Origin: Mobula hypostoma
Taxonomy: Eukaryota
Assembly: GCF_963921235.1 (NCBI RefSeq)
Contig: NC_086097.1
Coordinates: forward strand, 160,582,001-160,646,000
Reading direction: 5' to 3'
Length of the DNA: 64,000 nucleotides
In this document: in pieces, positions 1,901 through 63,332 of the stretch
Layout of the letters: each line of letters begins with the position of its first letter
How positions within the stretch are numbered: the stretch's first letter is position 1
Position numbers and translations under genes: made by a program
Notes under the pieces: generated by a model
What the model was told of the DNA's origin: nothing
Database searches by the model: none
What the model saw: only the letters and a program-made list of their open reading frames with translations

Positions 1901-2971
1901 CTTACTTCATTTCTGGGAGATAACTGAGGTCCCTAAAAACCTAAAGGATGGGTACCTATTAAAGGATCTGAATCTTCTTTGGCATTCTCAGAAATGTACT
2001 TGCCTCTTCTTCTCCAATGAAACAATAACAGTGAAGAGAATAAGCACAGGAGAAAATGTTTACAACCTGCTAAATGTTAGAGTAAATCCCTAGACTTATT
2101 GGTTTACTAAATGAAGTTAACTATGTTTTGGCATAAAGAAAACAAGTCAAAGTTCTGAATCTCTATCTAATAGAACTATTTATTTAGAAAAATATGTCTT
2201 CAGGATCTCAGCATTCTTCATCTCTCTGTTCTGTTGTACTACCTCTGTTCTTGTGCCACATATTAAATCAATGGATTCTTAGGCACTAATGACACTGATC
2301 TCACATAATTACTTTATCATTCAAAACATTAAACAATATATATAATTAATTGAAACATTGCAACTTGTTTTATTCTTATTATTCTACCTTTTATCCATTC
2401 CTAATGATTTAAATACAGAAACTTGAACTTTTATGCCAGAGTTAAGTGGGGAGATTCTCCAGTTTAATTGCTGCTTAACACTGGTTCAGCAAGACCACTT
2501 GACCCCCACACAGAGATACCATGATAAAGCTGCAGTCAAGAAAATATTGGAGAAACTTGGCCATTTGGTTGTTCTGTATTTATGTAGTAATCCCAAAATG
2601 TTGGCAGTAAATGTCAATAGTTCTATGTTGTATTACAGTTAATATCCTCACCCACAGATTATTAGTTTCAGTGATGTGAAAAATCATAAAAAGACCTGTA
2701 ATATAATGATCAGTCAAAAGTATAGAAGTTGGGCTTTGATGGTCGGTCTCCACAGTTACTACTAGGGTCAGATTAATTCTCAGAGGTTTTAGGAATGCCA
2801 CGTTTTTGGTTGCCAGAAACACCATATGTAAGGAAGATATTTTGTAAGAAACTAAAAACTCCTTCTTCCACTAGATTTATTCCTGACCACTGGTGCTGTC
2901 TGTGTGGAGCTTGAATCATCAGTTGATGTGCTCTGGTTTCCTCTCATCCCAAAAATGTGCTAATTGGTAGA

Positions 2972-3883
2972 ATTCCTGTTGTTTTCATGCCATCAGGTTG
3001 GAGACTGCCCAGACGGAATGTAGGGTGATGTTCCTCCAACCTGAGTGTGGCTCCATCAGGAGCTGAACAGAACAAGTGCTACACCTGCCCTTACACTTCC
3101 TCCCTCACCACCATTCAAGGCCCCAGACCGTCCTTCCAGGTGAGGCAACACTTCACCTGTGAGTCTGCTGGGGGGATATACTGTGTCCGATGCTCCCAGT
3201 GTGGCCTTCTATATATTGGCGAGACCCAACCGTAGACTGGGAGACCGTTTCACTGAACACCTACGCTCTGTCTGCCACAGAAAACAGGACCTCCCAGTAG
3301 CCACATATTTTAATTCCACGTCCCATTCCCATTCCAATATGTCAATCCATGGCCTCCTCTACTGTCGAGATGTAGCCACACTCGGGTTGGAGGAACAGCA
3401 CCTTGTGTTCCGTCTGGGTGGCCTCCAACCTGATGGCATGAACATTGATTTCTCTAACTTCCGTTAATGCCTCTCCTCCCCTTCTTACCCCATCCCTAAT
3501 GTTTTTTCCTTTTTTTTTCCCTCTCACAATAACTCCTTGCCTGTTCTCCATCTTCCTCTGGTGCTCTCCTCCGTCTTTCTTTCTTCTAAGGCCTTCCGTC
3601 CCATGATACTCCCCCTTCTCCAGCCTTGTATCCCTTTTGCCAATCACCTGTCCAGCTCTTGGCTCCATCCCTCCCCCTGCTGTCTTCTCCTATCATTTCG
3701 GATCTCCCCCTCCCCCTCCCACTTTCAAATCTCTTATTATCTCTTCTTTCAGTTAGTCCTGACGAAGGGTCTCGGCCTGAAACGTCGACTGCGCCTCTTC
3801 CTATAGATGCTGCCTGGCCTGCTGCGTTCACCAGCAACTTTGATGTGTGTTGCTTGAATTTCCAGCATCTGCAGAATTCCTGT
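2972..3883 (+). mobile_element. Penelope-like element (Neptune-like), 5'-truncated: GIY-YIG endonuclease plus terminal repeat, with a short inverted 5' piece (~2983-3058)
   Basis: KCYTCPYT...FQVRQHFTCESAGGIYCVRCSQCGLLYIGET / RRLGDRFTEHLRSV...LQPDGMNIDFSNFR is a GIY-YIG domain. ~2983-3058 is the reverse complement of ~3370-3443. Confidence 0.9.
3750..3791 (+). ncRNA. Minimal type I hammerhead ribozyme motif, core intact
   Basis: AGTC(3755-58)-CTGACGA(3759-65)-AGGGTCTCGGCCT(stem II)-GAAA(3779-82)-C-GTC(3784-86)-GACT(3787-90). Stem I is AGTC/GACT and stem III is the palindrome ACGT. Confidence 0.85.
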
Positions 3884-4420
3884 TAATTGGTAGATTAGTT
3901 GGTCGCTGTAAATTGCAGCAGGTGAGTGGTAGAATCAGGGAGAGTTGATTGGGGTATGGTGAAAATAGAACAGGATTACTGTAGGAATTTCAAAATTGGG
4001 TGAGCTTTATAATTGGTGGTGACTCAGTGGACTAAAGGGACTTCTGTGTGCTGTGATTCTTTAAGTTGATTCTCCTTGGTGTTAATGTTGTGGTTGCATT
4101 ATGTTCTGTTCTGTTGTTCAGCATTCCCTGGGACTATTGTACAACTCTTGAAAGAATAGTGTGGGATCTGAGAATAAATGGCAAAAGTAGGCTGAATATG
4201 AACTATTTTTCACATTCTGCTTGTTTTCTTTTGGGAGGGGGATAGTTTTGGCACCATTGAGGATGGTTTTGAAATTTCCGATGCAAAGGTGGAAACTATG
4301 GAATGTGTTCTCTAGTTAATTAAAAGTAACTTTTATAACCTATCTGAGAAATCTGAAAAACTTTGTTAAAGCCTAATGATGTAATAAATGTTGAGCATTT
4401 CTAAAAGGGCTCTCTAAAAC

Positions 4421-4587
4421 AAATACAAAAAAATGCAGGAAATACTCAGCTAATCAGGCAGCATTATTATTGTTGCATATCAATAATTTTTCATCTCCTC
4501 TGTAGATGATGCCTGACCTGTTAAGTTCCTCCAGCAATTTGTGTATGTTGCTCTGGATCTACAGCATCTGCAGAATCTCTTGTGTTC
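4421..4587. repeat. Inverted pair of degenerate Penelope-related terminal fragments
   Basis: 'aaatgcaggaaatactcagctaatcaggcagcat' is inverted relative to 'atgatgcctgacctgttaagttcctccagcaatttgtgt...cagcatctgcagaatctcttgtgtt'; both match the PLE terminus at 3805-3883. Confidence 0.6.
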
Positions 4588-4669
4588 ATCAAGTGAATAA
4601 TTTTCTTGAAGACCTAGCTGTCCAGCAGTTGATACTTATGCCTCAAAACTTTAAGGACTTGTTTGATCC

Positions 4670-4950
4670 TGACCTTCTGCTTGTTAGTTTGCATGTTTTC
4701 CCCATGACTGCATGGACATCTGTTTCCCCTCACATCCTACAGATGTGGTAGTTTGTATGTACGTTAATTGATCTCTGAAGTTCTTTTTTTGGGAGGGTTG
4801 TAGAAAATTTAGTGAGGAGTTAGTGGGCATGAGAGAAAAGTGGACAGAATTAAGTAAGTAGGGCCATAGAATTCATTGGATTCCTTTATGGGCTAGTGTA
4901 GACTCAATGAGCCATATGACCTGTGTGTTGTGATAAAATATGGAAAATAT
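4670..4950 (+). mobile_element. HE1-like SINE, degenerate
   Basis: 'gtttgcatgttttccccatgactgcatggacatctgtttcccctcacatcctacagatgtg...' followed by a CR1-like tail. Confidence 0.55.
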
Positions 4951-5659
4951 GTTATTCATGCTATTCCTGATAGATAACTTGCTATTCAATTGCAAATTTC
5001 TAAGTTCACATATACCCTACCGGTTTTGATATGATCTTTTTTGTGGTTTGAAAAACCCTTTTTTATCAGCTCCATCTTCAATGGCTGATAATTTTCAAAT
5101 TGAATTTCAATTGTGTATTCCCATTGACCTTAAACTGGCTTAGCTGAACCTGATTCCTCTGCCATGTTAGAATAATGCAGTGCATTAACACAGCATCTTC
5201 TCATGCCTTGGGCTGTGTTAAAGTAGTCTTGGCTGGTAGAATTAACATCCGTCCTTGCCAACTACAGGAATGGGAACAATATCAAGTTTGGGTGGTGCTT
5301 CTGATATGTGCTTATAATTAAATTAGTCCAATTTGGATTCTCACAACCCATTTGCAAATTTTACAGGAGTTGGCTTTGCCCCAGAATGAAAGCCAATGAA
5401 AATGTTCGTGAATATAAAATTGATAGCTTTTAGCTACACAGATGGTTAGTTTGCCAGCCAACACATTGCCAAAGAAGGCAGCAGGCAGCAGAAGCTTTGA
5501 AAGGCATCGTGTCTGAAACTGAAACATTATGTTGGAACATAGAACGTAGCAGAGCATAGAACAGGGACTTTGGCCCACAATGTTGTGCCAAACTAATTAA
5601 TCTAGTAACTAAGTGCCTAACTAAACTGATCCACAGACTTAAAAGATAAACTAGTCCTT

Positions 5660-7157
5660 CCCTGTTCGCTACATCAATGACTGCATTGGCACTGCTTCCT
5701 GCACTAGCGCTACTTCCTGTATGCTAACTGAGCTTGTTGACTCCAACTTCCACCCTGCCCTCAAATTTACCTGGTCCATTTCCGACACCTCCCTCCCCTT
5801 GATCTCTCTGTCTCTGGAGACAGCCGATCGACTGATGTCTACCATAAGCCCACGGACTCCCACGGCTACCTGGACTATTCCTCTTCCCACCGTTACTTGT
5901 AAAAATGCCATCCCCTTCTCTCAATTTCTCCGTCTCCACTGCATCTGCTCTCAGAATAAGGCTTTTCATTCCAGGACGAGGGAGATGTCCTCCTTTTTTA
6001 AAGAAAGGGGCTTCCCTTCCTCCACCAACAACTCTGCCCTCAAACGCATCTCTCCCATTTCACACACATCTGCTCTCACCCCATCTTCCCGCCATCCCAC
6101 TACGGATAGGGTGCCCCTCATCCTCACCTACCACCCCACCAGCCTCAGTGTCCAACATATAATTCTCCGTAACTTCAGCCATTTCCAACGGGATCCCACC
6201 ACCAAGCACACCTTTCCCTCTCCCCCCCACCCCCCCCCCCCCACACACACACACACACACACACACGGATCGCTCCCTACATGACTCCCTTGTCCAATCG
6301 TCCCCCCGCCCCCATCCCTTCTCACAGATCTCCCTCCAGGCACTTATCCTTGTAAGCGGAGCAAGTGCTCCACCTGCCCTTACACTTCCTCCTTCACCAC
6401 CATTCAGGGCCCCAGATAGTCCTTCTAGGTGAGGCAACACTTTACCTCTGAGTCTGCTGGTGTGATATACTGTGTCCACTGCTCCTGGTGTGGCCTTCGA
6501 CATATTGGTGAGACCCGACGCAGACTGGGAGACCGTTTTGCTGAACACCTACGCTCTGTCCGGCAGAGGAAGCAGGATCTCCCAGTGGCCACACATTTTA
6601 ATTCCATGTCCCATTCCCATTCTGATATGTCAATCCATGGCCTCCTCTACTGTCGAGATGACGCCACACTCAGGTTGGAGGAATAATACCCTGTATTCCG
6701 TCTGGGTAGCCTCCAACCTGATGGCATGAACATTGACTTCTCAAACTTCTGCTAATGCCCCACCTCCCCCTCGTACCCCATCTGTTATTTATTTATATAC
6801 ACACATTTTTTCTCTCCCTCCTTTTTCTCCCTCTGTCCCTCTCACTATACCCCTTGCCCATCCTCTGGGTTTTTTATTCCCCCCCACCCTTTTCCTTCTC
6901 CCTAGGCCTCCTGTCCCATGATCCTCTCATATCCCTTTTGCCAATCAACTGTCCAGCTCTTGGCTCCATCCCTCCCCCTCCTGTCTTCTCCTATCATTTT
7001 GGATCTCCCCCTCCCCCTCCCACTTTCAAATCTCTTACTAGCTCTTCCTTCAGGTAGTGCTGACAAAGAGTCTTGACCTGAAACGTCGACTGTACTTCTT
7101 CCTATAGATGCTGCCTGGCCTGCTGCGTTCATCAGCATTTTGTGTGTTGCTTCCTTC
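5660..7157 (+). mobile_element. Penelope-like element (Neptune-like), 5'-truncated: RT C-terminal half, Cys-rich linker, GIY-YIG, terminal repeat
   Basis: RYINDCIG at 5667 (degenerate YxDD), FHPALKFTWSISDTSLP, AIPFSQFLRLHCICSQ, FKERGFP, VPLILTYHP, YPCKRSKCSTCPYT, GVIYCVHCSWCGLRHIGETRRRLGDRFAEH. Multiple frameshifts and stops; (C)n/(CA)n tract at 6222-6266. Confidence 0.92.
7051..7092 (+). ncRNA. Hammerhead ribozyme motif, core-mutated
   Basis: CTGACAA (7060-66, G>A in CUGANGA) ... GAAACGTC-GACTG, at the same position in the PLE terminus as 3750-3791. Confidence 0.6.
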
Positions 7158-8109
7158 CCTGTTTGTCACTTTTATGTTCCTTATGGTTATCATTTTCAAG
7201 CCTGATGGATATTGTCCATGCAAAATTAGATATTTGAGGAAAGTCAGGCAAGCACCCAGAAGAATAGTGACTTTATATGGAGCAGGCAGTAGCTGGAACA
7301 CCAAGGCAAATGAAAGGTCTTTTGTTAAATTTGGCTTTGCCAAGATTTATAAATTAAATCTAAGGTTCCTTTCAACTTCTGATGAATGTATAGTGCAGGT
7401 GAGATGGGCTGATAGAATCTATTGTTGGATGCAATTTATTCTATGTCCACAGGCAGAGAAGGGTCTGATTTGCAGTTATGAATCAAGTGGCCACATTTCT
7501 CATATCCCATCCAAATCCCATGTGAAAGGGAAATAACCTTAAATCCATAGAGAATTAAACAAGTAAAATAGCATCCTAGAAAGAACTGCTTCCATTGATA
7601 TTCATTTAAAATGCTGTTCCTGTGTGATAACTTTTTGATGAGAAACATGAAAACAGCTTGAAACAGGACCTCATTGACAATACTGACATTTTTCTGGCAG
7701 CTACACTTACTGATAGAGCACAGAATCCACTGCAGCTACAATAGTTCACCAAGGCATACAGCCAGCTACTTGTGAGGCATTCCCATCAACTACAGATTGA
7801 AATCCATCGTTTTGTTTCAGAAGTACTCAGTGAGCTTTCCAGGTGCGTGATTGAATACCTCCCTCTCTAGACCCATCACCTTCAGAGCAGTTTTTCACTA
7901 CAAAAGCTCAGTAGTGGCTGTGAGAAGCATATAAATATTTCCAATAAAGAATGATTTGCGTTTTCTTCTTTCCAGAACAATGATTATTGCTTTACAGCCA
8001 GTGAATTACGTTTGAAATATACTGTAGTCACTGTTGTTCTGAAAGAAATGAGTGGTCCAATTTGCATGCAGCAAATTTCCTCAGACAGCAAGGTAATATA
8101 AATCAGACC

Positions 8110-8895
8110 ACACCATCCTGGCTTGCAAATATATTGCCAATCCTTCACTGGTTTTGAATCAATATCCTGGAACTGGTCCCCAATACTACAGTGGTAATAT
8201 TAGATTATGAAGACATGCAGCCCTCTTTTATTGTCATTTAGTAATGCATGCATTAAGAAATGATACAATATTTCCTCCGGTGTGATATCACAAAACACAG
8301 GACAGACCAAGACTAAAAAACTAACAAAACCACATAACTATAACATATAGTTACAACAGCGCAACAATACCATAACTTGATGAAGAACAGTCCATGAGCA
8401 CAGTAAAAAGTTCAAAGTCTCTCAAATGTCCCACATCTCACGCAGATGGGAGAAGGAAGAAAAACTCTCCCTGCCATGCCCGACCACAGTCCGACTCTGA
8501 GTCGTCCGAAAACTTCGAGCCTCCGATCAGCTCTCCGACACAGAGTACCGAGCACCATCTCTATCCGAACGATTCGACCTCAATCTTGCTTGCCAACAGC
8601 AGGCTAAGCCGGGGATTTTGAGGCCTTCCCTCCGGAAGATTCTCCACCACGCAGTAACAACAGCAGCGAACAGGCATTTCAGAAATTTCTCCAGATGTTC
8701 CTTTCTGCTTTCACATCTGTCTCCACCAAATCAGAATTGTCCACGGCCCCTATTTAACGGATACGATATCATTTTCACCGGAGGGCTCTGCATGCGCAGC
8801 ACACTGCTATCTCTCCTCCCGCCTTTTCACAAAATGAATGAAGTTGCTCTCCATCACGTTCTCAAGGGCAATTAAGGATGGACAATGAATGCAGG
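8110..8895 (+). mobile_element. Old LINE 3' end (L2-like), interrupted by the 8201-8823 repeat
   Basis: 'catcctggcttgcaaatatattgcc...tcctggaactggtcccc' and 'ccatcacgttctcaagggcaattaaggatggacaatgaatgc' flank the insertion. Confidence 0.45.
8201..8823 (-). mobile_element. ~620-bp non-coding interspersed repeat (non-autonomous retroposon-like), copy 1
   Basis: Aligns end to end, inverted, with 60130-60762. On the minus strand it ends AATAAAAAGAGGGCTGCATGTCTTCATAATCTA. Confidence 0.85.
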
Positions 8896-8944
8896 AATGG
8901 ACTCCTAAAGGCTGAAAATGAAATTTAAAGATCTTAATTTTTAG

Positions 8945-9175
8945 GACTGTTGAATGAGGAATAAATCTTGACCATTATGACTCTCCTTCAAAACAATACA
9001 ATCAGATCTTTTTTTCCAAACTGAAAGGCAAACAGTGTCACTTCAATGTCCCATCTGATTCAGTGCAGCCCTTCCTTAGTACTGACTGTGACTGGAGTCT
9101 AAATCATTTTGTTTCTCCAACTGCTTCAGTGGATCTTTCTGAATCAGTCACAAGAATGATCCATCTGAGAGAGCC
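8945..9175 (-). mobile_element. Degenerate DeuSINE-like (SacSINE/AmnSINE-type) fragment
   Basis: Loose reverse-complement similarity to 51437-51830, judged by eye. Confidence 0.35.
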
Positions 9176-13596: not shown

Positions 13597-14311
13597 CTCC
13601 TCCCTGCTTCACTATAAACTCCAACTCAATATAGATGCATCTCAGATTATTTATGAAACATATTGCTTAGTGATATCTGTAGTCCCTAGCCCTGGACTAC
13701 TTGTCAAGGAGTGAAACAGTGAACCTGTTTGTCTGAGGACCTCTCAATTTGTCTCAGCTGTTTCTCCTGCATGCTACTTGTGAAATTGGGATGAGGAAAT
13801 CCCAGTGTGAGCTTAAGGGAAGACCCAGGAAGAACACAGATGGCTATGGAATGTGCTCCACTGTGAGATACAAAGAAGGAAATTAGCAATCTTCTGATTC
13901 AGTGTTAATGTAGTGTGTTCTGCTGACATTGCTTGCAATGCACTCTTTAGAACCAGGACAAATTTTCCACCTATAGCTAGGTAATCCGGTGCAGATGTGT
14001 TATTCCATTTATTTTCAGGAATGACAGAAACTGTTCTGCAATACACTGCGGTCTATAGTCACTGACTAAGTGCTCTGGAATAACAGTCCTGGAGAAGAGA
14101 TATCTCAGCATATCAACAGTGTGCAAGGCTGTAAAGGAGGCTATTGGGAACACGACTTTCCACTTTGTCGCTGCGTCCACTACAACCAATAAAATTGTGC
14201 CTATGAATGATCCAGAAAAATCCATATGATACCTCTGCCAGGGAGTGATCTACCTGTTGAATTACCCCAAGCCACCAAAGCTTCAAACCAACACTTTCAT
14301 TGTGACCATAC

Positions 14312-17300
14312 ATAGAAACACAGAAAACCTACAGACCCTTCGGCCCACAATGCTGTGCCTAACATGTACTTACTTTAGAAATTACCTAGGGTTACCCATA
14401 GCCCGCTATTTTTCTAAGCTCCATGTACCTATCCAGGAGTCTCTTAAAAGACCCTATAGTATCCACCTCCAACAACGTTGCCAGCAGCCCATTTCACACA
14501 CTCACCCCTCCGCGTAAAAAAAACTTATGCCTGACATCTCTTCTGTACCTGCTTCCAAACACCTTAAAACTATGCCCACTCGTGTTAGCCATTTCAGCCC
14601 TGGGAAAAAGCCTCTGACTATCCACACGATCAATGCCTCTCATCATCTTATACACCTCCAACAGGTCACTTCTCATCCTCCGCCGCTCCAAGGAGAAAAG
14701 GCCAAGTTCACTTAACCTATTCTCATAAGGCATGCTCCCTAATCCAGGCAACATCCTTGTAAATCTCCTCTAACACCCTTTCTATAGTTTCCATATCCTT
14801 TCTGTACTGAGGCGACCAGAACTGAGCACAGTACTTCAAGTGGGGTCCGACCAGGGTCCTATATACCTGTAACATTAACCTCTCGGCTCTTAAACTCAAT
14901 CCCACGGTTGATGAAGGCCAATGCATCATATGCCTTCTTAACCACACAGTCAACTGCCAAGAGTCTTACTATTAATACTATATTCTGCCATCATATTTGA
15001 CCTATCAAAATGAACCACCTCATACTAATTTGGGTTCAACTCCATTTGCCACTTCTCAGCCCAGTTTTGCATCCTATCGATGTCCCACTGTAACCTCTGA
15101 CAGCCCTCCACAGTATCCACAACGCCCCCAACCTTTGTTTCATCAGCAAATATACTAACCGATCCTTCTGCTTCCTCATCCAGGTCATTTATAAAAATCA
15201 CAAAGAGAAAAGGTCCCAGAACAGATCCCCAAGGCACACCACTGGTCACCAACCTCCATGCAGATATGACCCATCTACAACTATTATCTTCTGTGAGCAA
15301 GCCAGTTCTGGTTCCACAAAGCAATGCCCCCTGGAACCCATGCCTCCTTATTGTCTCAATATGCCTTGTATGGGGTACCTTATCAAATGCCTTGCTGAAA
15401 TCCACATACACCTCATCTACTGCTCTACCTTCATCAATGTGTTTAGTCACATCTTCAAAAAATTCAATCATGCTTGTAAGGCATGTCCTGTCTTTGACAA
15501 AGCTATGCTGACTATTCCTCATCATATTATGCCTCTTCAGATGTTCATAAATCCTGCCTTTCAGGATCTTTCCCATCAACTTACCAACCACTGAAGTAAG
15601 ACGCACTGGTCTATAATTTTCTGGGCTATATCTACTCCCTTTCATGAATAAGGGAACAACATCTGCAACCTTCCAATCCTCCAGAACCTCTCCTGTCCCC
15701 ACTGACGATGCAAAGATCATTGCCACAGGCAATCTCCTCCCTTGCCTTTCACTGTAGCCTGGGGTACATCTCATTCGGTTCCACAGACATCCAACTTGAT
15801 GCTTTCCAAAAGCTCCAGCAAATCCTCTTTCTTAATATCCATATGCTCAAGCTTTTCTGTCCGCTGTAAGGCATCCCTACAATCACCAAGGTCCTTTTCC
15901 GTAGTGAATACTGAAGCGAAGTATTCATTAAGTACCTCTGTTATCTCCTCCGGTTCCATAAATACTTTTCCACTGTCACACTTGATTGGTCCTATTCTCT
16001 CACATCCTATCCTCATGCTCTTCAGATACTTGTGAATGCCTTGGGGTTTTCCTTAATCCTTTTCGCCAAGGCCTTCTCATGGCCCCTCTGGCTCTCCTAA
16101 TTTCATTCTTAAGCTCTTTCCTGCTAGCCTTATAATCTTATAGATCTCTATCATTACCTAGTTTTTTGAACCTTCCGTAAGTTTTTCTTTTCTTCTTGAC
16201 TAGATTTTCAACACCCTTTGTACACCATGGTTCCTGTACCCTACCATCCTTTGCCTGTCTCATTGGAACGTACATATGCAGAACTCCACGCAAATATCCC
16301 CTGAACATATGCCACATTTCTGCCGTACATTTCCCTGAGAACATCTCTTTCCAATTTATGCTTCCAAGTTCTTGCCTGATAGCTTCATACAGTATTTCCC
16401 CTTACTCCAATCAAACACTTTCGTAACTTGTCTGTTCCTATTTCTCTCCAGTGCTATGGTAAAGGAGATAGAATTGTGATCACTATCTCCAAAATGCTCT
16501 CCCATTGAGACTTGACACCTGACCAGGTTAATTTCCCAATACCAGATCAAGTACAGCCTCTCCTCTTGTCGGCTTATCTACATATTGTGTCAAGAAACCT
16601 TCTTGAACACACCTAACAAACTCCACCCCATCTAAACCCATTGCTCTAGGGATATGCGAATCGATATTTGGGAAATTAAAATCTCCCACCACTACAACCC
16701 TGTTATTATTACACCTTTCCAGAATCTGTCTCCCTTTCCGCTCCTCGATGTCATTGTTACTATTGGGTGGTCTATAAAAACACCCAGTTTTGTACTGACT
16801 CCTTCCTGTTCCTAACTTCCACCCACAGACTCCGTAGACAACCCCTCCATGTCTTCCTCCTTTTCTACGGCCATGACAGTATCTCTGATCAACAGCGCCA
16901 AGCTTCCACCTCTTTTGCCTCCCTCCCTGTCCTTTCTGAAACATCTAAAACCCAGCATTCAAAGTAACCATTCCTGCCCCTGAACCATCCAATTCTCTGT
17001 AATGGCCACAACATCATAAGTCCAAGTACCGATTCACGCTCTAAACTCATCTGCCTTGTTCATAATACTCCTTGCATTAAAATAGATACATCTCAAACCA
17101 TCCATCTGAGTGCGTCCCTTCTCGATCACCTGCCTATCCTCCCTCTCGCGCTGTCTCCAAGCTTTCTCTATTTGTCAGCCAACAGCCCCTTCCTCCGTCT
17201 CTTCGGTTCGGTTCACACCCCCCAGCAATTCTAGTTTAAACTCTCCCCAATAGCATTAGCAAACCTCTTTGCTAGGATATTGGTCCCCCTCAGATTCAAG

Positions 17301-18019: not shown

Positions 18020-19338
18020 CTAGATGACCAGCATGCAGCTCCTACAACACTTTAGTTCTTAGCTTGGATAGTAGAACAACTCTCAATCCCTACAATAGGC
18101 AACCATCATCAAGGGCAAATTCATCCCAGTGCTGGTAAAAATAGGGGAACTGATTCCTGTTGCACATTCCAGCCATTTTGGGTGGCCACGTAGACCTGAG
18201 GCAGTGTGGGGTTTTTTTTTTTTGGTTTTTCTTTGGATCATCTCTACCATAACAGGGAGACTTTTGATTTGGTTTAGAGAGAATACTTCAAGAGGAATGT
18301 CCACTTTTGTAAATGTTTAAGGTTATTTCTTTTAACAAGGGTAAACAGAATAATCGATCAGCATTTCTATGATTAGATGACCTCTTGAATTCAATCTTGT
18401 AACTGTGTCTACCAAGAAACAGAGTCCCTCTCTGTATTAGTGTAATGGATTCAAGTGATTGGTGATCAGTAAGAGGGAAAACCCTTTTCCATACAGGTAC
18501 TGGTTGAAACGTTTTACACCCAATAGCAGATCCAAGCCCTCTCTGTCAACCAGTGCATAATTTTTCTCTGCAGCAGTAAGGGAACATGATGCAATGGCTA
18601 TGGGTTCATTCACTTCCATCACTTATAACATATGACGACTGCAATATACTATAACGCATCATAGGCAAACTTTACTGGACAATATGGATCATAATTCATG
18701 AGTTCAAGGTCTAATGTCACCATTGCCTTTGCCTTTGGAAAGCCACCTCACACTGCTTTGTCCATTGCCATTTCTTCCTGATCTGCAGTAATGAGTCAAG
18801 CGGTGGAGCAGTGGCCATGTTTGACAGGAAATTGACAAATAGTAATTGCAAAATCCTAAAAAGGACCACAGCTGTGTAACAACCCTCGGCCTTGGGGCAT
18901 CCGCCACTGCTTGAAATTTCTCGGCACACTTGTGTAATGCTTGTGCATTAATTGTGTGAACACAGTGAGTGATGTTTGGTTTAATTAATTTACTCTTCTC
19001 ACAATGTGCACGGAGCCCATGAACTTCTAATCTTTTTAACACTGTATTGAGATTTTGGAGATGTTCTTGGTCATCCTGACAAGTAACAGTAATGTCATCC
19101 AGGTAACACTAAGTGCCTGGGCAGCCTTGCAGCACCTGGTCCATAACTTTCTGCAAAAGTGCAGGTGCAGATGCTACTCCAAAAATAAGCCTACTATAGC
19201 GATAAAGCCCTTTGTGAGTGCTCATGGTGAGAAACATTTTGGACACTTCTTCCATTTTCATCTGTAGGTAGGCTTCAGCTAAGTCTACTTTACTAAGTAT
19301 TTCCCTCCAGAAAGGTTTGCAAAGATATCTTTTATCCT

Positions 19339-20326
19339 TGGGAGGAGCGAGGAAAGACGGTGCCAGTGGTTTTTGCAGACCAAGGTGACTTCTTTCAGTT
19401 CACCCATAAAACAGCTTATTCCTCTTCTCTTTCCTTTCTAGGTGGGTTGGGGTTCTGTCAGAGTCCAAAATCTACAGTATAAACTACAGTTCTTCACAAG
19501 CAGTGGTTTTTTGGACCAGCTGTGTGGTCTAGCACTTCACTATCTCCACGAACAGCCTGGAAGACGTGCCCTTGGGGAACAGCCCTGTAGGCAACCTGGT
19601 TCCTTGACAATTCTCCACCTGAAGCATTGTGGGAGACTGAAACATCGAGACAGTAGGTGGTGTGTTTGCTAATCACCAACTGCTGTCAAAAGAAGGTCCA
19701 TGTACTCAAATGATCCTTCTCTCTCTCTTTCAGTGGAGAGTAAGAGTATGTTGGTCTTTGAGACAGGAGGCTTGGAGAAGCGACATGGAAGATTGTAACG
19801 TGGAAACAGCGAGTTGCTGGTCTCCACTCTCGTTCTTGCAGACCCTTCCCCTCCCTCACTAGAGAGCCTGTCTGAGATACTGAAGCAATGGTTAATGTAT
19901 TGTTGTTTTGATGGACTCTGGATCAAGGTCTTTTTGGGGCCTGGTGGAGTGTGGAGGGCTGGTGCTTCTGCAGGCAGGGGGGGGGTGTTTGCTGTTGCTT
20001 GTGGGAACGTTGGGGGAGGGGGTTGTTGGGGTTTCAAAGTTTCCATCTTTCCATCTGTGCGGGGTTAAGAGCTGGTGATTTCTTTGAAAAAAAAACACTC
20101 ACCCGGCAGAAGGCAATGGCAAATCACTGCCGTAACTTGCCTCGTACGCGAATTCCAATTACGTCAGAACGGTGTGGAAGTTGTCCGCTACCTGGAAAAA
20201 TTCCGGATGCGACCTACATTATTATTATTAATATCGTTCTATGGGATTTCTTGTTTCAGTGATGTCTGTGAAGAGTATGAATTTTAGATTGTATACATTC
20301 TCTGATATAAAATGAACCTTTGAACC
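19339..20326 (+). mobile_element. ~990-bp non-coding retroposon inserted in the Gypsy RT
   Basis: TSD 'tatcct' at 19333-19338 and 20327-20332. It ends 'tataaaatgaacctttgaacc', a short tandem tail. The Gypsy frame YPLRRI/IKDIFANLSGG rejoins across it. Confidence 0.8.
20045..20232 (+). mobile_element. RTE-related SINE fragment nested in the 19339-20326 element
   Basis: 'ggcagaaggcaatggcaaatcactgcc' resembles the BovB/RTE-derived motif GAAGGCAATGGCAAnCCACT. It ends in (ATT)n. Confidence 0.55.
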
Positions 20327-27654: not shown

Positions 27655-29855
27655 AAGGAATAGAGGGATCAGAAGTGGAGAGAGTATCTGCTCCTCAGTG
27701 TCTGTCAATATCGCTGAGGATCTAACCTGGTCCCAACATATCGATGCAGCTACAAAGAAGACAAGAGAGCAGCTATGTTTCATCAGGAGTTTGAGGAGAT
27801 TTGATTTGTCATCTAAAACACTCAAAAATTTCTACAGATGTATCATGGAGAGCATTTTGACAGGCTGCATCACTGTCTGGTATGGGGGGAAGCTACAGAA
27901 AGTTATAAAATTAGTCAGCTCCATCATAAGTACTAGCCTCCATTGTATTCAAGACATCTTCAAGGAGCAGTGCCTCAGAAATACCGGGTCCATTATTAAG
28001 GACCACCATCAAGACATGCCCTCTTCTCATTGTTACCATCAGGAAGGAGGTACAGAAGACTGAAGGCTCACACTCAGCAATTCAGGAACAGCTTCTTCCC
28101 CTCTGCCTTCTCATCTCTAAATGTACATTTACAGGTTTCCCCCGCCATCTGAAGGTACAGCGTTCCTATGAAACGGTTCATAAGCCGGAATGTTGTAAAG
28201 CGATGAAGCAATTACCATTTATTTATACGGGAAAATTTTGTAAGCGTTCACAGACCCAAAAATAACCTACCAAATCATGCCAAAGAACACATAAAACCTA
28301 AAATAATAGTAACATGTAGTAAAAGCAGGAATGATATGATAAATACACAGCTTATATAAAGTAGAAATACTTTTCCACAATCATTGCCTGAACTGCTCAC
28401 CGTAGCGAAAATCTCACACAAGCGCCATCGGCAAAAACACGGCGCAAACGCTCTTCAGTAACCTTTAAGCTATGAAGCTGCCAAATCATACCAAATAACA
28501 CGTAAAAACACACAGCCGATATAAAGTAGAAATAATGTGTGTACAGAGTAGTATCACTTACCGGAATTGGGAAAGCGCGGAGCACACTGATGGTGGTGTG
28601 TTAGACTGAGTCGTCGCAGGTTGGGGTGGTGCAGTGGCCCCCACCCTCCGGGCAGCGACCTGATACATTGCCGCGAAGCATGCAGGGGTACAGCGGTAGC
28701 CGGGACGCATCCAGTGCATCTTTAAGAAAAAAGCCGAAATAAACATACTAATTAACTAGGTGCCGCCCGGCACGTAATTGGCGGCCCAGATCAGTGCCGA
28801 TTGCGTCGCCTCTGATCTGGGCCAACAATTACGTGTCGGGCGGCACCTAATTAATTAGCATGTTTATTTCGGCTTTTTTCTTAAAGATGTGCTGTGTGTC
28901 TCCCGGCTACTGCTGCATTCTCCGCGAATCGATATCTGTCCGCGGCCTGGGTGTTGGGGTGGTGGGACATTGGGGTGTCATCTCGTCATCTATTGCCATC
29001 AGGCAGGCAGCTCACCTTCTCCTGTGACTGCCCGCCTCGAAGTCGAAGGTCGAGGTTCGGCGTCTGCTGTGGCTGATGTGTAAGGCTTGCTTGACTGCTG
29101 AGCCTCGCGCATTTTTCTATCATACAGTTCTTTGAAAGCACTCAAACCATCCTGCAAATATCCCCTAAACCGACGTACCCTTTCAAGATTAAAGTCGTAC
29201 TTTATCATTACTCATTTGGTTTCGATTGTTATCCTTTCCTCTTTCAATTGCATAAGCTCTTCATCTATCAGTTCTTTGTCATGGGATGCCAAAACCTCTT
29301 CAACATCATCTTCGTCAACTTCCGCAAGCCAAACTCACGTTGTCCTTACTTTGTTCACCACGATCAAAACACTTAATTATGTCTAGTTTTACGTTAAGCT
29401 TAACACACTTACGAGCTCTTTTAGGCTTTTCCAATACCTTAGAACTCATCTTGCAAACGGCTACTCACAGGCACGTGTTTAAGCAATGCCGGCGAAAATG
29501 CAGTTCCGAATCCAGGGGAGGACCGCTGCTCGGGGCGCGCGCTGCCTTCTTTGTAACAGTGAAAACACCTTCTGTTAGCAAAAACAGGGAACTAATGTAG
29601 GTCTTTCATAACAGTGAGGTTTCGTAAAGTGAACGTTCAAAATGTGGGGGCCACCTGTAACCTATAAACACTACCTCATTTTTTAAAATTATTTGTTTTT
29701 GCACTATTTGTAAATTAAAAATTTAATATACATATATACTGTAAATGTACTGTAATTCATTTTTTCCTATTTTTATCATGTATTGCATTGTACTGCTGCC
29801 ACTAAGTTAAATTTCACAACATATACCAGTGATATTTAACCTGATTCTGATTCTG
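27655..29855 (+). mobile_element. Rex1/Babar LINE 3' end (27655-28130 and 29660-29855), split by a Tigger element
   Basis: VNIAEDLTWSQHIDAATKKTREQLCFIRSLRRFDLSSKTLKNFYRCIMESILTGCITVWYG. The 3' UTR ends 'aacctgattctgattctg'. Confidence 0.85.
28132..29657 (-). mobile_element. Tigger/pogo DNA transposon, internally deleted (no DDE core), with an internal palindrome
   Basis: TA-flanked TIRs 'caggtttcccccgcc' / 'tgtgggggccacctg'. Minus strand from ~29448 reads MSSKVLEKPKRARKCVKLNVKLDIIKCFDRGEQSKD (CENP-B/psq HTH), joined out of frame to an acidic C-terminus EVDEDDVEEVLASHDKELIDEELMQL. Confidence 0.88.
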
Positions 29856-31188: not shown

Positions 31189-34100
31189 GCGCATGCGCTG
31201 GTCGTGCATGCAGCCGGTTACAGTTGCTCCGTAATTTCTTACTTTTAAACTTTGTAACTTAAGTTATTTGTTGTGTTTTTTTTCTCACGGTAACACGTTG
31301 AAGCTGCACCCTCTCTAACATGCTGGTGGAGAGAGTTTTATTTGTTTTTTTAGCACTGGAATTAGTTACTTTCGGACACGTCTCGATAGCATGGCAGCAG
31401 GATGGTCGCATTGTGTATTCAAGGGACCAATTGATTGCACTCATGCCCGCTAGTTTAGCGAACAGAGCAGCGGACATCCTGGCTGAAATCTGGAGGAAAA
31501 CACACAGAGGATGCTGAGGGGGAACAAAAAGGCGAGGGAAGAGGACTGGGTCGAGACAACGGAGGCTTATGGAGAAGTTATAAGCCATGTCTCCCCTCTC
31601 TCATCATGGGAAATGTGAGATCGCTGGGGAATAAATCGACGAATTGACTGTGCTTGTCAGGAGTCACAGAACATTTCGGGAGAGCAGTGTCATGTGCTTC
31701 ACTGAGTCGCGGCTGCACGAGGACATACCCGATCAAAGCGTTTCCATAGAGGGCTTCCAGACCGTTCGAGCTGACCGGAATTGCACTGAGACTGGTAAGC
31801 GCAAAGGAGGGGGGGCTGGCGGTTCTGGTCAGTAACAGATGGCGCAATCCTGGGCATATTACGATTAAGGAACGTGTCTGTAGCCCAGATATTGAACTTT
31901 TTGCTGTTGGACTGCGGCCATATTATTTGCCAAGGGAAATCTTGCATGCAATTGTGGTTGTTGTGTACATCCCTTCCTCTGCCAACCCGACGTCGGCGTG
32001 TAACATCATTTACACCGTCATAGCCAGTTTACAAACCCAGCACCCGAGTGCCCTCATTACCATCTCGGGTGACTTCAACCAGGTTACCATGGCTAGAACA
32101 CTGCCCAACTTCACGCAGTATGTGAGCTGTACAACCAGAGGGGAAAGGACTCTGGATTTGATGTACGCTAACGTTAAGGATGCATACAGCTCCTCTCCCC
32201 TCCCCCCACTGGGAAGGTCAAATCACAACCTGGTGCATCTAAAACCCTGCTACGTGCCTCTGGTGAAGAGTAAACCTGCAACCTCGAGGACAGTGAGGAA
32301 ATAGTCGGAGAAGGCTTATGAGGCGCTCCAGGGTTGTTTTGAGGTGACAGACTGGCAGGCACTCTGTGAACCACATGGAGAGGATATTGATGGGCTCACA
32401 GAATGTATCACTGATTACATTAACTTCCGTGTGCACTGCAATGTTCCGACAAGAACTGTCCTTTGTTATTCAAATAACAAGCCATGGGTGACAAAGGACA
32501 TTAAGGACATCCTGAACGCTAAAAAGAGGGCAATTAGGGATGGAAATAGGGAGGAGCTGAGGGCAATATAGAGGGACCTGAAAGCCAGGATCAGGGAGGC
32601 TAAAAGACAGGTACAGGAGGAATCTTGAGTGGAAACTCCATTAGAACAACATGAGAGAGGTCTGGAGGAGGATGAGGACCATCACTGGGTTTCGGCAAAC
32701 TTGCAACAGAGGAGCTGAAGGCAGTGTGGACAGGGCCAACGAACTTAACCTGTTCTTTAACAGATTTGACATTGTGACCCCTGCCCATCCCCCACGAGCC
32801 ATCTGTTGTCAGCCACCAAGCAACACATATTCCACTCTCCCCTCCTCACAGTCCCCCACCCTGCTCTTATGACTATACCCCTTCCCCACACGAAACCACC
32901 ACGGTGGGCTTCACGTCTGAACAGGTGAGAAGACAGCTGAAACGTCTCAACCCAAGCAAGGCTGCAGGACCGGATGGTATCAGTACCAGGGTGCTCAAAG
33001 CCTGTGCCCCTCAGCTATGTGGAGTACTTCGCCATGTGTTCAACATGAGCCTGAGGCTCCGGAGGGTTCCTGTACTGTGTAAGACGCCGCGCCCCAGTGG
33101 CCTCAATGACTACAGACCGGTGGCATTGACCTCCCACATCATGAAGACCTTGGAGAGACTTGTTCTGAAGCTGCTCCGGCCTATGGTCAGGCCACACTTA
33201 GATCCCCTCCAGGTCGCCTACCAGCCCCGACTAGGAGTTGAGGATGCCATCGCCTACCTGCTGAACCGTGTCTACGCCCACCTGGACAAGCCAGCGAGCA
33301 CTGTGAGGGTCATGTTTTTTGACTTCCCCAGTGCGTTCAACACCATCCGCCCTGCTCTGCTGGGGGAGAAGCTGACAGCAATGCAGGTGGATGCTTCCCT
33401 GGTATCATGGATTCTTGATTACCTGACCGGCAGACCACTGTACATGTGCTTGCAACACTGTGTGTCTGACAGAGTGATCAGCAGCACTGGGGCTCCACAG
33501 GGGACTGTCTTGTATCCCTTTCTCTTCACCATTTACACCTCGGACTTCAACTACTGCACAGAGTCTTGTCATCTTCAGAAGTTTTCGGATGACTCATCAG
33601 TTGGATGCATCAGCAAGGGAGATGAGGCTGAGTACAGGGCTATGGTAGGAAACTCTGTCACATGGTGTGAGCAGAATTATCTGCAGCTCAATGTGAAAAA
33701 GACTAAGGAGCTGGTGTTAGACCTGAGGAGAGCTAAGGTACCGGTGACCCCTGTTTCCATCCAGGGGGTCAGTGTAGACATGGTGGAGGATTACAAATAC
33801 CTGGGGATACGAATTGACAATAAACTGGACTGGTCTAAGAACTCTGAGGCTGTCTACAAGAAGGGTCAGAGCTGTCTCTATTTCCTGAGGAGACTGAGGT
33901 CCTTTAACATCTACCAGACAATGCTGAGGATGTTCTACGAGTCTGTGGTGGCCAGTGCTATCATGTTTGCTGTTGTGTGCTGGGGCAGCAGGCTGAGGGT
34001 AGCAGACACCAACAGAATCAACAAACTCATTCGTATGGCCAGTGATGTTGTGGGGATGGAACTGGACTCTCTCACGGTGGTGTCTGAAAAGAGGATGCTG

Positions 34101-34520
34101 TCTAAGTTGCATGCCATCTTGGTCAATGTCTCCCATCCACTACATAATGTACTGGGTGGGCACAGGAGTACATTCAACCAGAGACTCATTCCTCCAAGAT
34201 GCAGCACAGAGCAACATAGGAAATCATTCCTGCCTGTGGCCATCAAACTTTACAACTCCTCCCTTGAGGGTCAGACACCCTGAACCGACAGTCTGGTCCT
34301 GGATTTATTTCATAATTTACTGGCATAATTTACATATTACTATTTAACTATTTATTACTATTTTCTATTACTATTCTATTACTATTTATTATTTCTATGA
34401 CTATTACTATTTACTAATAGTAATATTACTATTACTATTTCTATTACTATTTATTATTTATGGTGCAACTGTAACAAAAAACAATTTCCCCCGGGATCAA
34501 TAAAGTATGACTATGACTAT
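31189..34520 (+). mobile_element. Near full-length Rex1/Babar LINE (APE endonuclease plus RT), disabled by stops and frameshifts
   Basis: MGNVRSLGNK, VMCFTESRL, VVVYIP, ISGDFNQ, TRGERTLDL, LGRSNHNLV, NNKPWVT, then RT. Ends 'caataaagtatgactatgactat'. CpG-rich 5' start. Confidence 0.95.
32904..34283 (+). pseudogene. Rex1/Babar reverse transcriptase open frame (459 aa)
   Basis: KAAGPDGI, DYRPVALTSHIMKTLERL, FFDFPSAFNTI, TGAPQGTVL, KFSDDS, LNVKKTKEL, YKYLG. Small in-frame deletions are apparent near VPVLCKTP and FSDDSSVG. Confidence 0.9.
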
Positions 34521-38804: not shown

Positions 38805-38842
38805 CAGTTGATGTTTCATGCCGAGAACCTTCTTCAGGACTG
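38805..38842 (-). ncRNA. Hammerhead ribozyme motif, partly decayed
   Basis: Minus strand: CAGTC-CTGAAGA-AGGTTCTCGGCAT-GAAA-CATC-AACTG. Confidence 0.6.
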
Positions 38843-39214: not shown

Positions 39215-39256
39215 CAGTCGATGTTTCAGGCCGAGACCCTTCGTCAGGACTAACTG
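39215..39256 (-). ncRNA. Hammerhead ribozyme motif (AUC triplet variant)
   Basis: Minus strand: CAGTTAGTC-CTGACGA-AGGGTCTCGGCCT-GAAA-CATC-GACTG; a single G>A in stem III relative to 3750-3791. Confidence 0.75.
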
Positions 39257-40951: not shown

Positions 40952-40993
40952 CAGTTAGTCCTGACGAAGGGTCTCGGCCTGAAACGTCGACTG
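40952..40993 (+). ncRNA. Minimal type I hammerhead ribozyme motif, core intact
   Basis: CAGTTAGTC-CTGACGA(40961-67)-AGGGTCTCGGCCT-GAAA(40981-84)-CGTC-GACTG, identical to 3750-3791. Confidence 0.85.
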
Positions 40994-41082: not shown

Positions 41083-42222
41083 CAGTGGCATGCAAAAGTT
41101 TGGGCACCCTGGTCAAAATTTCTGTTACTGTGAATAGCTAAGCGAGTAAAAGACGACCTGATTTCCAAAAGGCATAAAGTTAAAGATGACACATTTCTTT
41201 AATATTCTAAGAAAACTTTTATTTCCATCTTTTACAGTTTCAAAATAACAAAAAAGAAAAAGGGCCTGAAGCAAAAGTTTGGGCACCCTGCATGGCAGTA
41301 CTTAGTAACACCCCCTCTGGCAAGTATCACAACTTGTAAACACTTTATTAGCCAGCTAAGAATCTAAATTCTATTTTAACTTCATCAGTCCACAGGACTT
41401 GTTTCCAAAATGCATCAGGCTTGTGTAGATGTTTCCTTTGAACCTTCTGAATAGAACTTTTTGGCCACAATGAGCAAACACATGTTTGGAGAAAAAAGGG
41501 TACAGAATTTGATGAAAAGAACCCCTCTCCAACTGTTAAGTACGGGGGTGGGGGGGGGTGGATCAATCATGCTTTGGGCTTGTGTTGCAGCCAGTGGCAC
41601 GGGGAACATTTACTGGTAGAGGGAAGAATGAATTCAATTAAATACCAGCAAATTCTGGAAGCAAACATCACACCGTCTGTAAAAAAGCTGAAGATGAAAA
41701 GAGGATGGCTTCTACAACAGGATAATGAACCTAAACACACTTCAAAATCCACAATGGACTACCTCAAGAGGTGCAAGCTGAAGGTTTTGCCATGGCCCTC
41801 TCAGTCCCCTCACCTAAACATCATGGAGAATCTGTGGATAGACCTCAAAAGAGCAGTGCATGCAAGACGGCCCAAGAATCTCACAGAACTAGAAGCCTTT
41901 TGCAAGGAAGAATGGATGAAAATCCCCCAAACAAGAATTGAAAGACTCTTAGCTGGCTAGAAAAAGTGTTTATATGATACTTGCCAAAGCGGGTGTTACT
42001 AAGCACTGCCACGCAGGGTGCCCAAACTTTTGCTCCGGGCCCTTTTCCTTTTTTGTTATTTTGAAACTGTAAAAGATGAAAATAGAAAAGTTTTCCTGCT
42101 TAGAGTATTAAAGAAATGTGTCATCTCTAACTTTATGCCTTTTGGAAATCAGTTCATCTTTTACTCGCTTAGCTATTCACAGTAACAGAAATTTTGACCG
42201 GGGGTGCCCAAACTCTTGCATG
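41083..42222 (+). mobile_element. Tc1-family (IR/DR type, DD34E) transposon, internally deleted and rearranged
   Basis: TA-flanked. Long inverted ends contain the repeated 'gcaaaagtttgggcaccc' DR (41092 and 41271). QQDNEPKH...WPSQSPHLNIMENLW has 34 residues between D and E. The WTDE segment lies on the minus strand at ~41367-41450. Confidence 0.93.
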
Positions 42223-43112
42223 TAATATGAAGTGTTGCTGCTTCACTCTCAGAGTGGCCTCATCATGGCAGAAGAGAAGGCCATGGACCGACATGTTGTA
42301 ACGAGAATGGGGATAGGAATTAAAAAGGTTGGCCACTGGGAAATTCCACTTTTGGTGGATGGAGTGGAGGTGCTCGACAAAGGGGTCCTCCAGTTTATTT
42401 TGGTTCTCACCAATGCAGAGGAGGCTGCATCAAGAGCACTGGATACAATAAACACCATCAGATTCACAGGTGAAATGTTGCCTCACCTGGAAGAACTGTT
42501 TGGAACCCTGAATGGAGGTAACAGAGGAGGTAAATGGGCAAGTGTAGCATTTCTGTCACCTACAGGGATATGTGTCAGGAGGGAGATTAGTGGGGAAGGG
42601 TGAATCGGCAAGGGAATCCAGAGAAATCTCTGTGGAAGGTGGAGATGAGGAGGACATAAAGATGTATTTGGTGGTAGGATCCTGCTGAAGGTGGCAGAAG
42701 TTGCAGAGAATGACGTATTGGATGCAGAAGTTCATGAGGTGGTAGGTGAGATAAGAGGAACTCTATCCCTGTTAAGGTGGCAGGAAGACAGGATGAGGCA
42801 GATGTCCTAGAAATGGAGGAGATGCAGGTGAGGGTAGCATCAATAATGGAGGAAGGGGAACTCCATTCTTTGAAGAAAGAGGACATCTCTGATTTCCTGG
42901 AAAGGAAAGCCTCATCCTGGGAACAGAAGCAGTTGAGACAAAGGAACTGAGAAAAAGGAATTACAGGAGACAGTGTGGGAAGAGGTATTGTCAAGGTAAC
43001 CGTGGGAATCGTAAGTTTACAAAGGATGTCAGCAGACAGATCATCTTCAGAGATAGAAAGATTGAGAAAGGAAAGGGAGGTGTCAGAAATGAATCAAGTA
43101 AGTTTAAGGGCA

Positions 43113-44480
43113 GTGTGGAAGAACATCATCAGTGAGGTTCTACCAACAATGGTTGTAACATCAGCAAATTTATAGATGGTATTTGAGCAATGCCTAGCCA
43201 CACAATCATGAGTATATAGAGAGTAGAGCAGTGAACTAAGCACACACCCCTGAAGTGCACCAGTGTTGATCGTCAGTGAGGAGGAGATGTTATCACCAAT
43301 CTGCACAGACTGTGGTCTTCTGGTTAGGAAGACGAGGATCCAAATGCAGAGGGAAGTACAGAGGCCCAGGTTCTGCAACTTCTCAAGCAAGGTTATGGGG
43401 ATGATAGTATTAAATGCTGAGCTATAGTCCATGAACAGCATCCTGACATAGGTATTTGTGTTGTTCAGGTGGTCTAAAGCCGTATGAAGAGCCACTGTGA
43501 TTGCATCTGCCACTGACCTATTGTGGTGATAGGCAAATTGTAATGGTTCCAGGTCCTTGCTGGAGGCAGGAGTTCAGTTTAGTCATGACCAACCTCTCAA
43601 AGCATTTCATCACTGTAGATGTGAGTGCTACAGTGATTAAGGCAGCTCACATTATTCTTCTTAGGTACTGGTATAATTGTTGCCTTGTTGAAACAAGTGG
43701 GAACTTCTGCCCATAGCAGTGAGAGGTTGAAAATGTCCTTGAATACTCCCTCCAGTTGGTTGGCACAGGTTTTCAGAGCCTTACCAGGTACTCCATCAGG
43801 ACCTTCCACCTTGCAAGGGTTCACTCTCTTTAAAGACAGCTTAACATTGGCCTCTGAGACAGAGATCACAGGGTCTTCAGGTGTAGCAGGGGTCTTCACA
43901 GCTGTAGTTATATTCTCCCTTTCCAAGCAGGCATAGAAGGCATTGAGTTCATCTGGTAGTGAAGCATCACTGCTATTCATGCTATTGGGTTTCACTTTGT
44001 AGGAAGTAATGCCTTGCAAACTCTGCCAGAGTTGTCGTACATCCAACTGTGCCTCCAACCTCCTTCGAAATTGTCTCTTTGCTCTTGAAATAGCCCTCCG
44101 CAAATCATACCTGGTTTTCTGGTACGAGCCTGGGTCACCAGACTCGAATGCCACAGATCTAGCCTTCAGCAGGCGATGTACTTCCTGTCATCCACGGCTT
44201 TTGGTTTGGGGAAGTATAGTAGGTCTCTATAGACACACACACATCCACATAGTTTTTAATGAAGCTGGTAACAACTGCTACATACTCATCCAGGTTCGAA
44301 GATGAATCCCTGAATACAGTCCAGTCCACTGATTCAAAGCAGTCCTGTAGGCACACCTGTGCTTTCCTTGTCCATACCTTCTTGGTCCACACTACAGTCT
44401 TCAGTCTCTGCCTGTACTCAGGGAGTGGAAGTACAGCCAGGTAATCAGACTTCCAGAAGTGAAGGCATGGAATAGCCTCC
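43113..44480 (-). mobile_element. Rex1/Babar LINE internal fragment
   Basis: [89 protein letters not shown]. Confidence 0.9.
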
Positions 44481-63201: not shown

Positions 63202-63332
63202 CAGTTCTGATGAAGGGTCTCAGCCCAAAACATCAACTGTACTCTTTTCCATAGATGCTGCCTGGCCTACTGAGTTCCTCCAGCATTTTGTGTGTGTTGT
63301 TTAGATTTCCAGCATCTGCAGAATTTCTCATC
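63202..63332 (+). mobile_element. ~130-bp Penelope-terminus mini-element headed by a decayed hammerhead
   Basis: CAGTT-CTGATGA-AGGGTCTCAGCCC-AAAA-CATC-AACTG, then 'gatgctgcctggcc...ccagcatctgcagaatttctc'. TSD agtatttgtc (63193-202) / agtacttgtc (63333-342). Confidence 0.8.

Follow-up and report, generated by a model that had tools for sequence, protein, structure and literature searches.

A minimal hammerhead ribozyme in the terminal repeats of an abundant Neptune-type Penelope-like element of Mobula hypostoma

Results and discussion

A minimal type I hammerhead with a palindrome for helix III

Does a hammerhead ribozyme carried by a mobile element cut the RNA that is copied back into the genome, or is that RNA copied whole? 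The question is raised by a 64,000-nucleotide stretch of the Mobula hypostoma genome (contig NC_086097.1, positions 160,582,001 to 160,646,000; hereafter the window), in which a first-pass annotation had recognised a hammerhead in a Penelope terminal repeat and had proposed that it processes the element transcript and could also cut host pre-mRNA. We number the motif from A3755 (+1), so that the predicted cut lies between +32 and +33 (3786/3787). Its parts and immediate surroundings, all on the forward strand, are as follows.

3755..3790, forward: minimal type I hammerhead motif (+1..+36), from direct sequence reading and a minimal type I descriptor
3755..3758, forward: stem I 5' strand AGUC; the family's copies show their 5'-end peak at A3755
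3759..3765, forward: core CUGACGA (C3 to A9), from the sequence
3766..3778, forward: extra A and stem II (G.U, G-C, G-C, U.G) with a CUCG loop, or in an alternative register A-U, G-C, G-C; from folding and older copies
3779..3786, forward: GAAA, palindrome ACGU and C17, from the sequence; stem III forms only in a dimer
3787..3790, forward: stem I 3' strand GACU, from the sequence
3753..3759, forward: TTAGTCC, candidate transcription start at A3755, from the sequence and 5'-end counts
3820..3867, forward: predicted tail hairpin, from folding; its loop and surroundings hold the first cluster of 3' ends (+91..+106)

The bases of a minimal type I hammerhead are those first described: CUGANGA, GAAA and NUH occur in the correct order, with GAAA at 3779-3782, C-GTC at 3783-3786 and GACT at 3787-3790. 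An open helix I and a closed helix II can both form, at 4 bp each, and the 15.1-16.1 segment, in place of helix III, holds the palindrome ACGU (3782-3785) as its sole stem III, an arrangement known from the published class (PMC4209133). The predicted cut falls after C3786, as annotated. The descriptor gave two identical matches in the window (3759 and 40961), far above chance (mean 0.0 in 200 Markov-1 shuffles), and the core with a 13-nucleotide spacer occurred 22 times in 600 kb of genome chosen by position, compared with 0.2 in shuffles. Rfam hammerhead models expect a helix III; a search with them, which had been suggested as a check, returned no hammerhead at the gathering score across the window and none at E<=10 within 3000-4600. 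Judged by its sequence, the motif is a real minimal type I hammerhead.

Energies were computed with a nearest-neighbour model that omits Mg2+ and tertiary terms. The 36-mer has an ordinary folding energy (z -0.37); its most stable predicted fold is a rod over exactly +1..+36 that pairs the core GACG with CGUC (-10.0 kcal/mol). The open junction reaches -6.0 kcal/mol with an extra A and a G.U closing pair, versus -4.6 in the A-U register; because of this difference, and of the C found at 11.1 in older copies, the extra-A register is preferred. The annotated short stem II is thus retained in refined form: in the model it most likely reads as an extra A3766, then G.U/G-C/G-C/U.G with the CUCG loop, which leaves G.U (or A-U) at position 10.1-11.1 of the window copy, versus the usual G10.1-C11.1. 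A double hammerhead is valued at -9.5 kcal/mol versus -20.0 for two rods, so that the active dimer would be about 10 kcal/mol less stable. The monomer is accordingly predicted by the model to be an inactive rod hiding the core, and low unaided cleavage would be expected, as published for the class and for an anole element. In the cDNA, the corresponding hairpin has no stem I and reaches a weak -2.6 kcal/mol.

The host element

The motif lies near the 3' end of a truncated insertion bounded by a target-site duplication:

3070..3884, forward: 5'-truncated Neptune-type Penelope-like element (PLE) copy, with the GIY-YIG end (stop 3465-3467), a pyrimidine-rich 3' UTR, the ribozyme and a tail to about +130; 706 of 804 aligned bases are identical to an intact copy, L101
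2984..3057, reverse: inverted endonuclease fragment at the 5' joint of this insertion, from sequence comparison
2961..2971, forward: left target-site duplication TAATTGGTAGA (11 nt), read directly
3884..3894, forward: right target-site duplication TAATTGGTAGA (11 nt), read directly

A short direct piece of tail end (about +124..+139) lies between the left duplication and the inverted arm (2969-2984).

The intact copy L101, elsewhere in the genome, carries the identical 36 bases at both ends (2506 and 6021, 3515 apart), which bears out the annotated location in a Penelope terminal repeat (pLTR). Its single ORF (2676-5723, 1016 amino acids) encodes a reverse transcriptase (RT) and, at the C terminus, a GIY-YIG endonuclease; the Pfam matches, RVT_1 (E 3.8e-5) and GIY-YIG (E 0.004), are both below the curated cut-off, and a PDB sequence search with the ORF returned nothing significant. 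The protein has the motifs DKG, YIDD and GVIY..YIG, and its linker CKRNKCYTC at residue 883 (CX4CxxC) fits the Neptune CX2-5CxxC before the endonuclease. As in the Neptune clade described by Craig et al. 2021 (PMC8557442), RT precedes a C-terminal GIY-YIG with CCHH, the CX2-5CxxC linker and DKG, and the copies show partial tandems, inverted 5' arms and a 30-40-bp tail; unlike in that clade, the target sites seen here are mostly not microsatellites. pLTRs, partial tandems, inverted 5' arms and an optional tail were all seen, as in EN+ Penelope-like elements. By the criteria set out in PMC8557442, the linker and motifs point to a Neptune-type PLE, with Nematis, which shares the linker motif, as a formal alternative.

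The first shared ATG is at +171, downstream of the ribozyme. In the youngest copies (L101, 2597-2676) an A at +93 creates an in-frame ATG at +92 and an ORF of 1042 amino acids, which would put both RT start sites (see below) inside the coding sequence; the window copy has GTG there. At 3795-3809, CTCTTCCTATAG followed by ATG resembles a splice acceptor, in which +50 varies among subfamilies (T/G/C) and AG is kept.

The 40 best matches to the 5' part of L101 are 99-100% identical, and in one tandem locus, which has an intact ORF, successive motifs (three in all) lie 3516 and 3514 apart, so the family is young and was likely active recently. Full-length copies are about 99% uniform, and one of them (L134) begins exactly at +1. 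The ORF 5' end is present in 25 young copies, of which 17 continue upstream through the ribozyme and only two start at +1..+3.

Exact copies of the 36-mer number 32,886 genome-wide, and those of a 30-nucleotide tail word 64,745, with no match to the backward-sequence control of either. A tail profile matched 106 times in 600 kb of genome, a density that would correspond to roughly 600,000 pieces, counting all ages. With about 33,000 like it, the copy at 3755 is ordinary, and the window also holds these further copies of the motif:

40957..40992, forward: second identical ribozyme, in another PLE fragment, from the descriptor and comparison
39216..39251, reverse: third copy, one change in the ACGU palindrome, from the tail profile and alignment
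7056..7091, forward: decayed copy, core G8 and stem I changed, from alignment
63203..63238, forward: older-subfamily copy, GAAA changed to AAAA, from alignment
38806..38841, reverse: older-subfamily copy, decayed, from alignment

Where copies begin and end

The 3' ends of copies are bimodal, 64 of 135 falling at +91..+106, in and beside the loop of the predicted tail hairpin, and 58 at +126..+145. The two clusters correspond to the PLE tail, which is bounded by two RT start sites. Among 60 stretches of 10 kb chosen by position, one contained a copy whose tail continued.

For 5' ends we counted, genome-wide, sites at which 8 bases from a given position and the anchor +61..+80 matched and the three preceding bases mismatched; every such count reflects a single pattern and carries a microhomology bias of its own. 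Apparent ends (with approximate values corrected for the filter pass rate in brackets) numbered 499 (1250) at -4, 2235 (5600) at +1, 655 (1480) at +5, 334 (680) at +16, 261 (720) at +29, 411 (930) at the cut site +33 and 201 (500) at +37, while the counts at -10, 261 (650), and +45, 125 (310), include shifted intact copies. The positions counted closest to +1 were -4 and +5. After correction the cut site reaches 1.3-1.8 times the level of its neighbours. When copies were chosen by tail only, 11 of 50 began at -1..+7, two at +30..+36, and 17 extended past the 400-nucleotide test; in the old subfamily, where upstream divergence can mimic a start, the figures were 24 of 86 at -3..+7 and three at +30..+36. 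Differences in the pyrimidine tract from one subfamily to another can also make old-copy ends stop at +1.

The joints at the two positions differ in kind. At +1, the first 30 loci comprise 10 joints to non-element DNA, 18 to an inverted arm and two to direct element sequence; six of the 10 non-element joints have a duplication of at least 7 nucleotides, and one of the 10 (L176) is doubtful, as it resembles older-type upstream sequence. At +33, a single locus out of 30 joins non-element DNA, 25 are inverted joints, with the stem I word itself as the overlap in six, and four are intact copies with point changes. A recurrent head-to-head joint (L255-L273, junction at 1500), in which the inverted arm ends at +7 in 16 of 20 loci, followed by CT and then +33, suggests template switching within the ribozyme hairpin; this CT is complementary to the AG that the plain stem I joint shows.

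The annotation's proposal that the ribozyme routinely processes the copied transcript is not supported: 5' ends peak at the first base of the motif and not at the cut site, and the window copy reads through. Since copies often begin at that first base and rarely at the predicted cut site, they were likely made from mostly uncut RNA, and processing by the ribozyme is at best partial. Some cleavage is possible, +33 being slightly above its neighbours, and cut RNAs may be poor templates that leave no copies.

What the peak at the first base may mean

Because 5' ends peak at its first base, the ribozyme likely marks the 5' end of the element RNA, probably the transcription start. YYANWYY is the initiator pattern, and TTAGTCC at 3753..3759 matches it. 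The explanation that we favour, with somewhat better than even confidence, is that the motif is a minimal hammerhead of the pLTR of a young, hugely amplified Neptune-type element, likely situated at the 5' end of the element RNA and predicted to stay mostly uncut. Transcription would start at A+1 inside the pLTR and continue through tandem units, and the RNA would fold into the GACG/CGUC rod that conceals the core. RT would prime at two internal sites: priming in the first repeat, with run-off at +1, would give ribozyme-plus-tail inserts of 100-140 nucleotides, often head to head, and priming in a downstream repeat would read through an uncut or religated ribozyme, as in the window copy. Cleavage after C17 would be slow, would need the element protein or a second ribozyme and would affect a minority of RNAs; the copy at 3755 would be a passive genomic by-product.

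The presence of the motif at both ends of intact 3.5-kb units and 3' ends about 100 and 135 bases past +1 argue for this explanation, and PLE start sites have been placed within the pLTR (PMC2377424, PMC8557442). Against it, in Drosophila virilis an intron separates the ribozyme from a start that lies far upstream of it (PMC2377424, PMC4209133), the G that a copied cap would leave before +1 is not in excess, and longer-than-unit templates are common, as 17 of the 25 copies with an ORF 5' end show; a cut and religated circle would equally produce these.

Such circles belong to a different explanation, which we consider unlikely: dimer-activated self-cleavage would cut tandem read-through RNA to units, possibly circular templates, and read-through copies would come from religated circles, as in the model of Cervera and de la Pena. 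The full core and the palindromic ACGU are kept in all subfamilies, tandem units and the longer-than-unit copies exist, weak dimer cleavage in vitro has been published for the class (PMC4209133), and +33 is slightly raised. However, the main end is +1, where a circle would have none, and the joints at +33 join non-element DNA only once in 30 loci. A jump across the cut site was considered as a trace of cleavage and rejected, as it is rare and near its control (41 versus 24) and 19 of 20 loci are inverted joints. The roughly 10 kcal/mol penalty on the dimer also disfavours this scheme.

It is also rather improbable that the peak at +1 is no RNA 5' end at all, and stems from structure or repair, for example from RT letting go at the foot of the hairpin formed by +1..+36, from trimming by a nuclease there, or from splicing that uses the AG and pyrimidine tract preceding stem I. 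The RNA rod does span exactly +1..+36, and inverted joints employ its complementary words; an extra G before +1, the trace of a copied cap, shows no excess (8 of 30 loci). RT, however, would reach the RNA rod at +36 and not at +1, and the hairpin in the cDNA is the weak one that lacks stem I. For splicing, an intron of D. virilis ends at helix I (PMC4209133), but the sequence upstream of +1 is duplicated target DNA or an inverted arm, with no shared exon. Contigs of four runs that we guess to be RNA cover the element and show no RNA ends; in one run two joints fall at +1, which is a weak hint, and no GT..AG joint was found among the 15 joints listed of 194.

A more speculative addition to the favoured explanation, to which we give little credence, makes the hammerhead the first 36 transcript nucleotides and a fate switch (compare PMC13725137): uncut RNA would be the transposition template, and protein-triggered cutting would remove the capped leader and divert the RNA to cap-independent translation or decay. 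If so, the tens of thousands of ribozyme-plus-tail inserts would be 'strong-stop' products of uncut RNA, and the genome would be the largest known vertebrate stock of latent hammerheads, switchable by the element's own protein.

Conservation of the motif

The comparison drew on 94 copies that span the region and had been selected by their tail, their ORF or their position. Among the younger ones, read by eye, the sole shared non-CpG change in the motif is C/T at 11.1. Majority bases of the old subfamily (52 of 86 copies, those reaching -6) depart from the young copy at two of 36 motif positions (N7 and 11.1, both tolerated) versus 15 of 85 flanking positions (p=0.09); the linker +38..+48 is mixed, and the tail +49..+82 is conserved as strongly as the core. 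The core is kept from one subfamily to another. At 11.1, older copies have C at least as commonly as T. A search for cores with a 14-nucleotide spacer gave 198 matches versus 23 in the control and revealed an oldest group. In 19 hand-picked decayed copies, the hammerhead structure pairs 73% of cells versus 20-51% for slid partners; the stem covariation score is not above shuffles (293 of 500), and one C-G/U-A double change in stem I separates groups. Conservation fits a maintained ribozyme and is no proof of one.

A motif that has lost its catalytic activity and persists as a promoter or binding element is very improbable: the G.U of the youngest subfamilies in place of the usual G10.1-C11.1 pair, the equally conserved tail and the covariation score would suit it, but the catalytic positions are the majority base throughout the young, old and oldest groups, and the two changes of the oldest group, U-A for C-G at the inner stem I pair and U for C17, are both allowed.

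Comparison with known ribozyme-bearing elements

Minimal hammerheads in the pLTRs of PLEs have already been published (PMC4209133), and the present motif resembles them in being type I with a 4-bp helix I and only a palindrome for helix III, in the extra base between A9 and 10.1, in its presence in both pLTRs, and in occurring mostly as solo copies in truncated elements; Neptune elements of fish are among those reported. It differs in helix II (4 bp here versus 6-8) and in the G.U at 10.1-11.1 of young copies, and the 32,886 exact copies compare with about 2,000-9,000 motifs reported for schistosome, coelacanth and Xenopus. The text and supplement of that paper, as far as examined, name no cartilaginous fish. 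Dimer cleavage of PLE hammerheads was reported by Lunse et al. (as cited in PMC6765202).

The closest experimental counterpart is the Poseidon element of Anolis carolinensis, PAc (Frangieh et al. 2024, PMC11167929), whose hammerhead cuts only with protein and is dispensable for insertion in vitro, with no RNA reads ending at the cut site. As in PAc, the tail is set by two internal RT start sites, priming involves both strands, the hammerhead lies near the ORF start, and uncut RNA is, here by the copy ends, the likely main template. Unlike PAc, whose ORF starts inside stem II, the present element has a Neptune-type linker and an ATG past the ribozyme (+171, or +92 in the youngest copies), and a 5'-end peak at the ribozyme, of which the PAc account seen describes none.

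Animal non-LTR retrozymes (bioRxiv 10.64898/2026.07.22.740005), also found in one chondrichthyan, are likewise non-coding PLE-derived repeats with type I hammerheads, but form head-to-tail tandem arrays, whereas the short copies here are solo or head-to-head. We rejected a retrozyme identity, as the focal copy is a solo truncated PLE and the tandem seen is coding, with 3.5-kb units. Like the 5' HDV-like ribozymes of R2 and L1Tc (PMC6765202), the hammerhead would sit at the 5' end of a retroelement RNA; unlike in those, where the cut makes the 5' end of the copy, copies here start 32 bases upstream of the cut.

The arrangement is thus known, and what is added is the copy number and a genome-wide end profile. 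In a literature search whose scope excluded most subscription journals and Repbase, we found no report of the present family or of a 5'-end peak at the ribozyme. The abundance of an intact, uniform family lets genomic ends be counted; the resulting profile lends genomic support to the in vitro finding that the template is uncut RNA. The family also supplies a Neptune-type protein and RNA for direct tests.

Genomic setting and other repeats in the window

The suggested cutting of host pre-mRNA has nothing here in its favour: a Pfam scan of the 69 longer frames of the window found transposon domains only and no host exon, a result compatible with an intron. The nearest same-strand partner of this 5'-truncated solo copy is the core-broken copy 3.3 kb away, so that in a pre-mRNA it would be a lone minimal ribozyme without a close partner and, in most cells, probably without element protein.

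The window holds further repeats. An old head-to-head tail pair with no ribozyme left lies at 4428-4576, with a weak Rfam UnaL2 match (E 0.069, 24.9 bits versus 55). On the reverse strand, a more divergent PLE copy (about 70% identity) occupies 42224-44187; it has RT frames, and no tail or ribozyme was found adjoining. A Tc1/mariner-like element (41107-42203), beside a PLE copy, has inverted ends and a DDE_3 frame. Frames for RT or endonuclease, one of them open for 501 amino acids, mark LINE fragments at 14330-16715, 45728-48442, 32778-34283, 18707-19399 and 56577-56903. Decayed LTR-retrotransposon pieces lie at 2-800 and 13980-14249 (zinc-knuckle-like and protease-like by eye, integrase core by Pfam), and two hairpin-like palindromes with arms of about 110 nucleotides at 28691-28915 and 50383-50602. 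Finally, 8200-8735 and 60230-60763 are inverted copies, 87-96% alike, of a repeat of about 550 nucleotides, the start word of which also follows a PLE tail in another genomic locus (L055).
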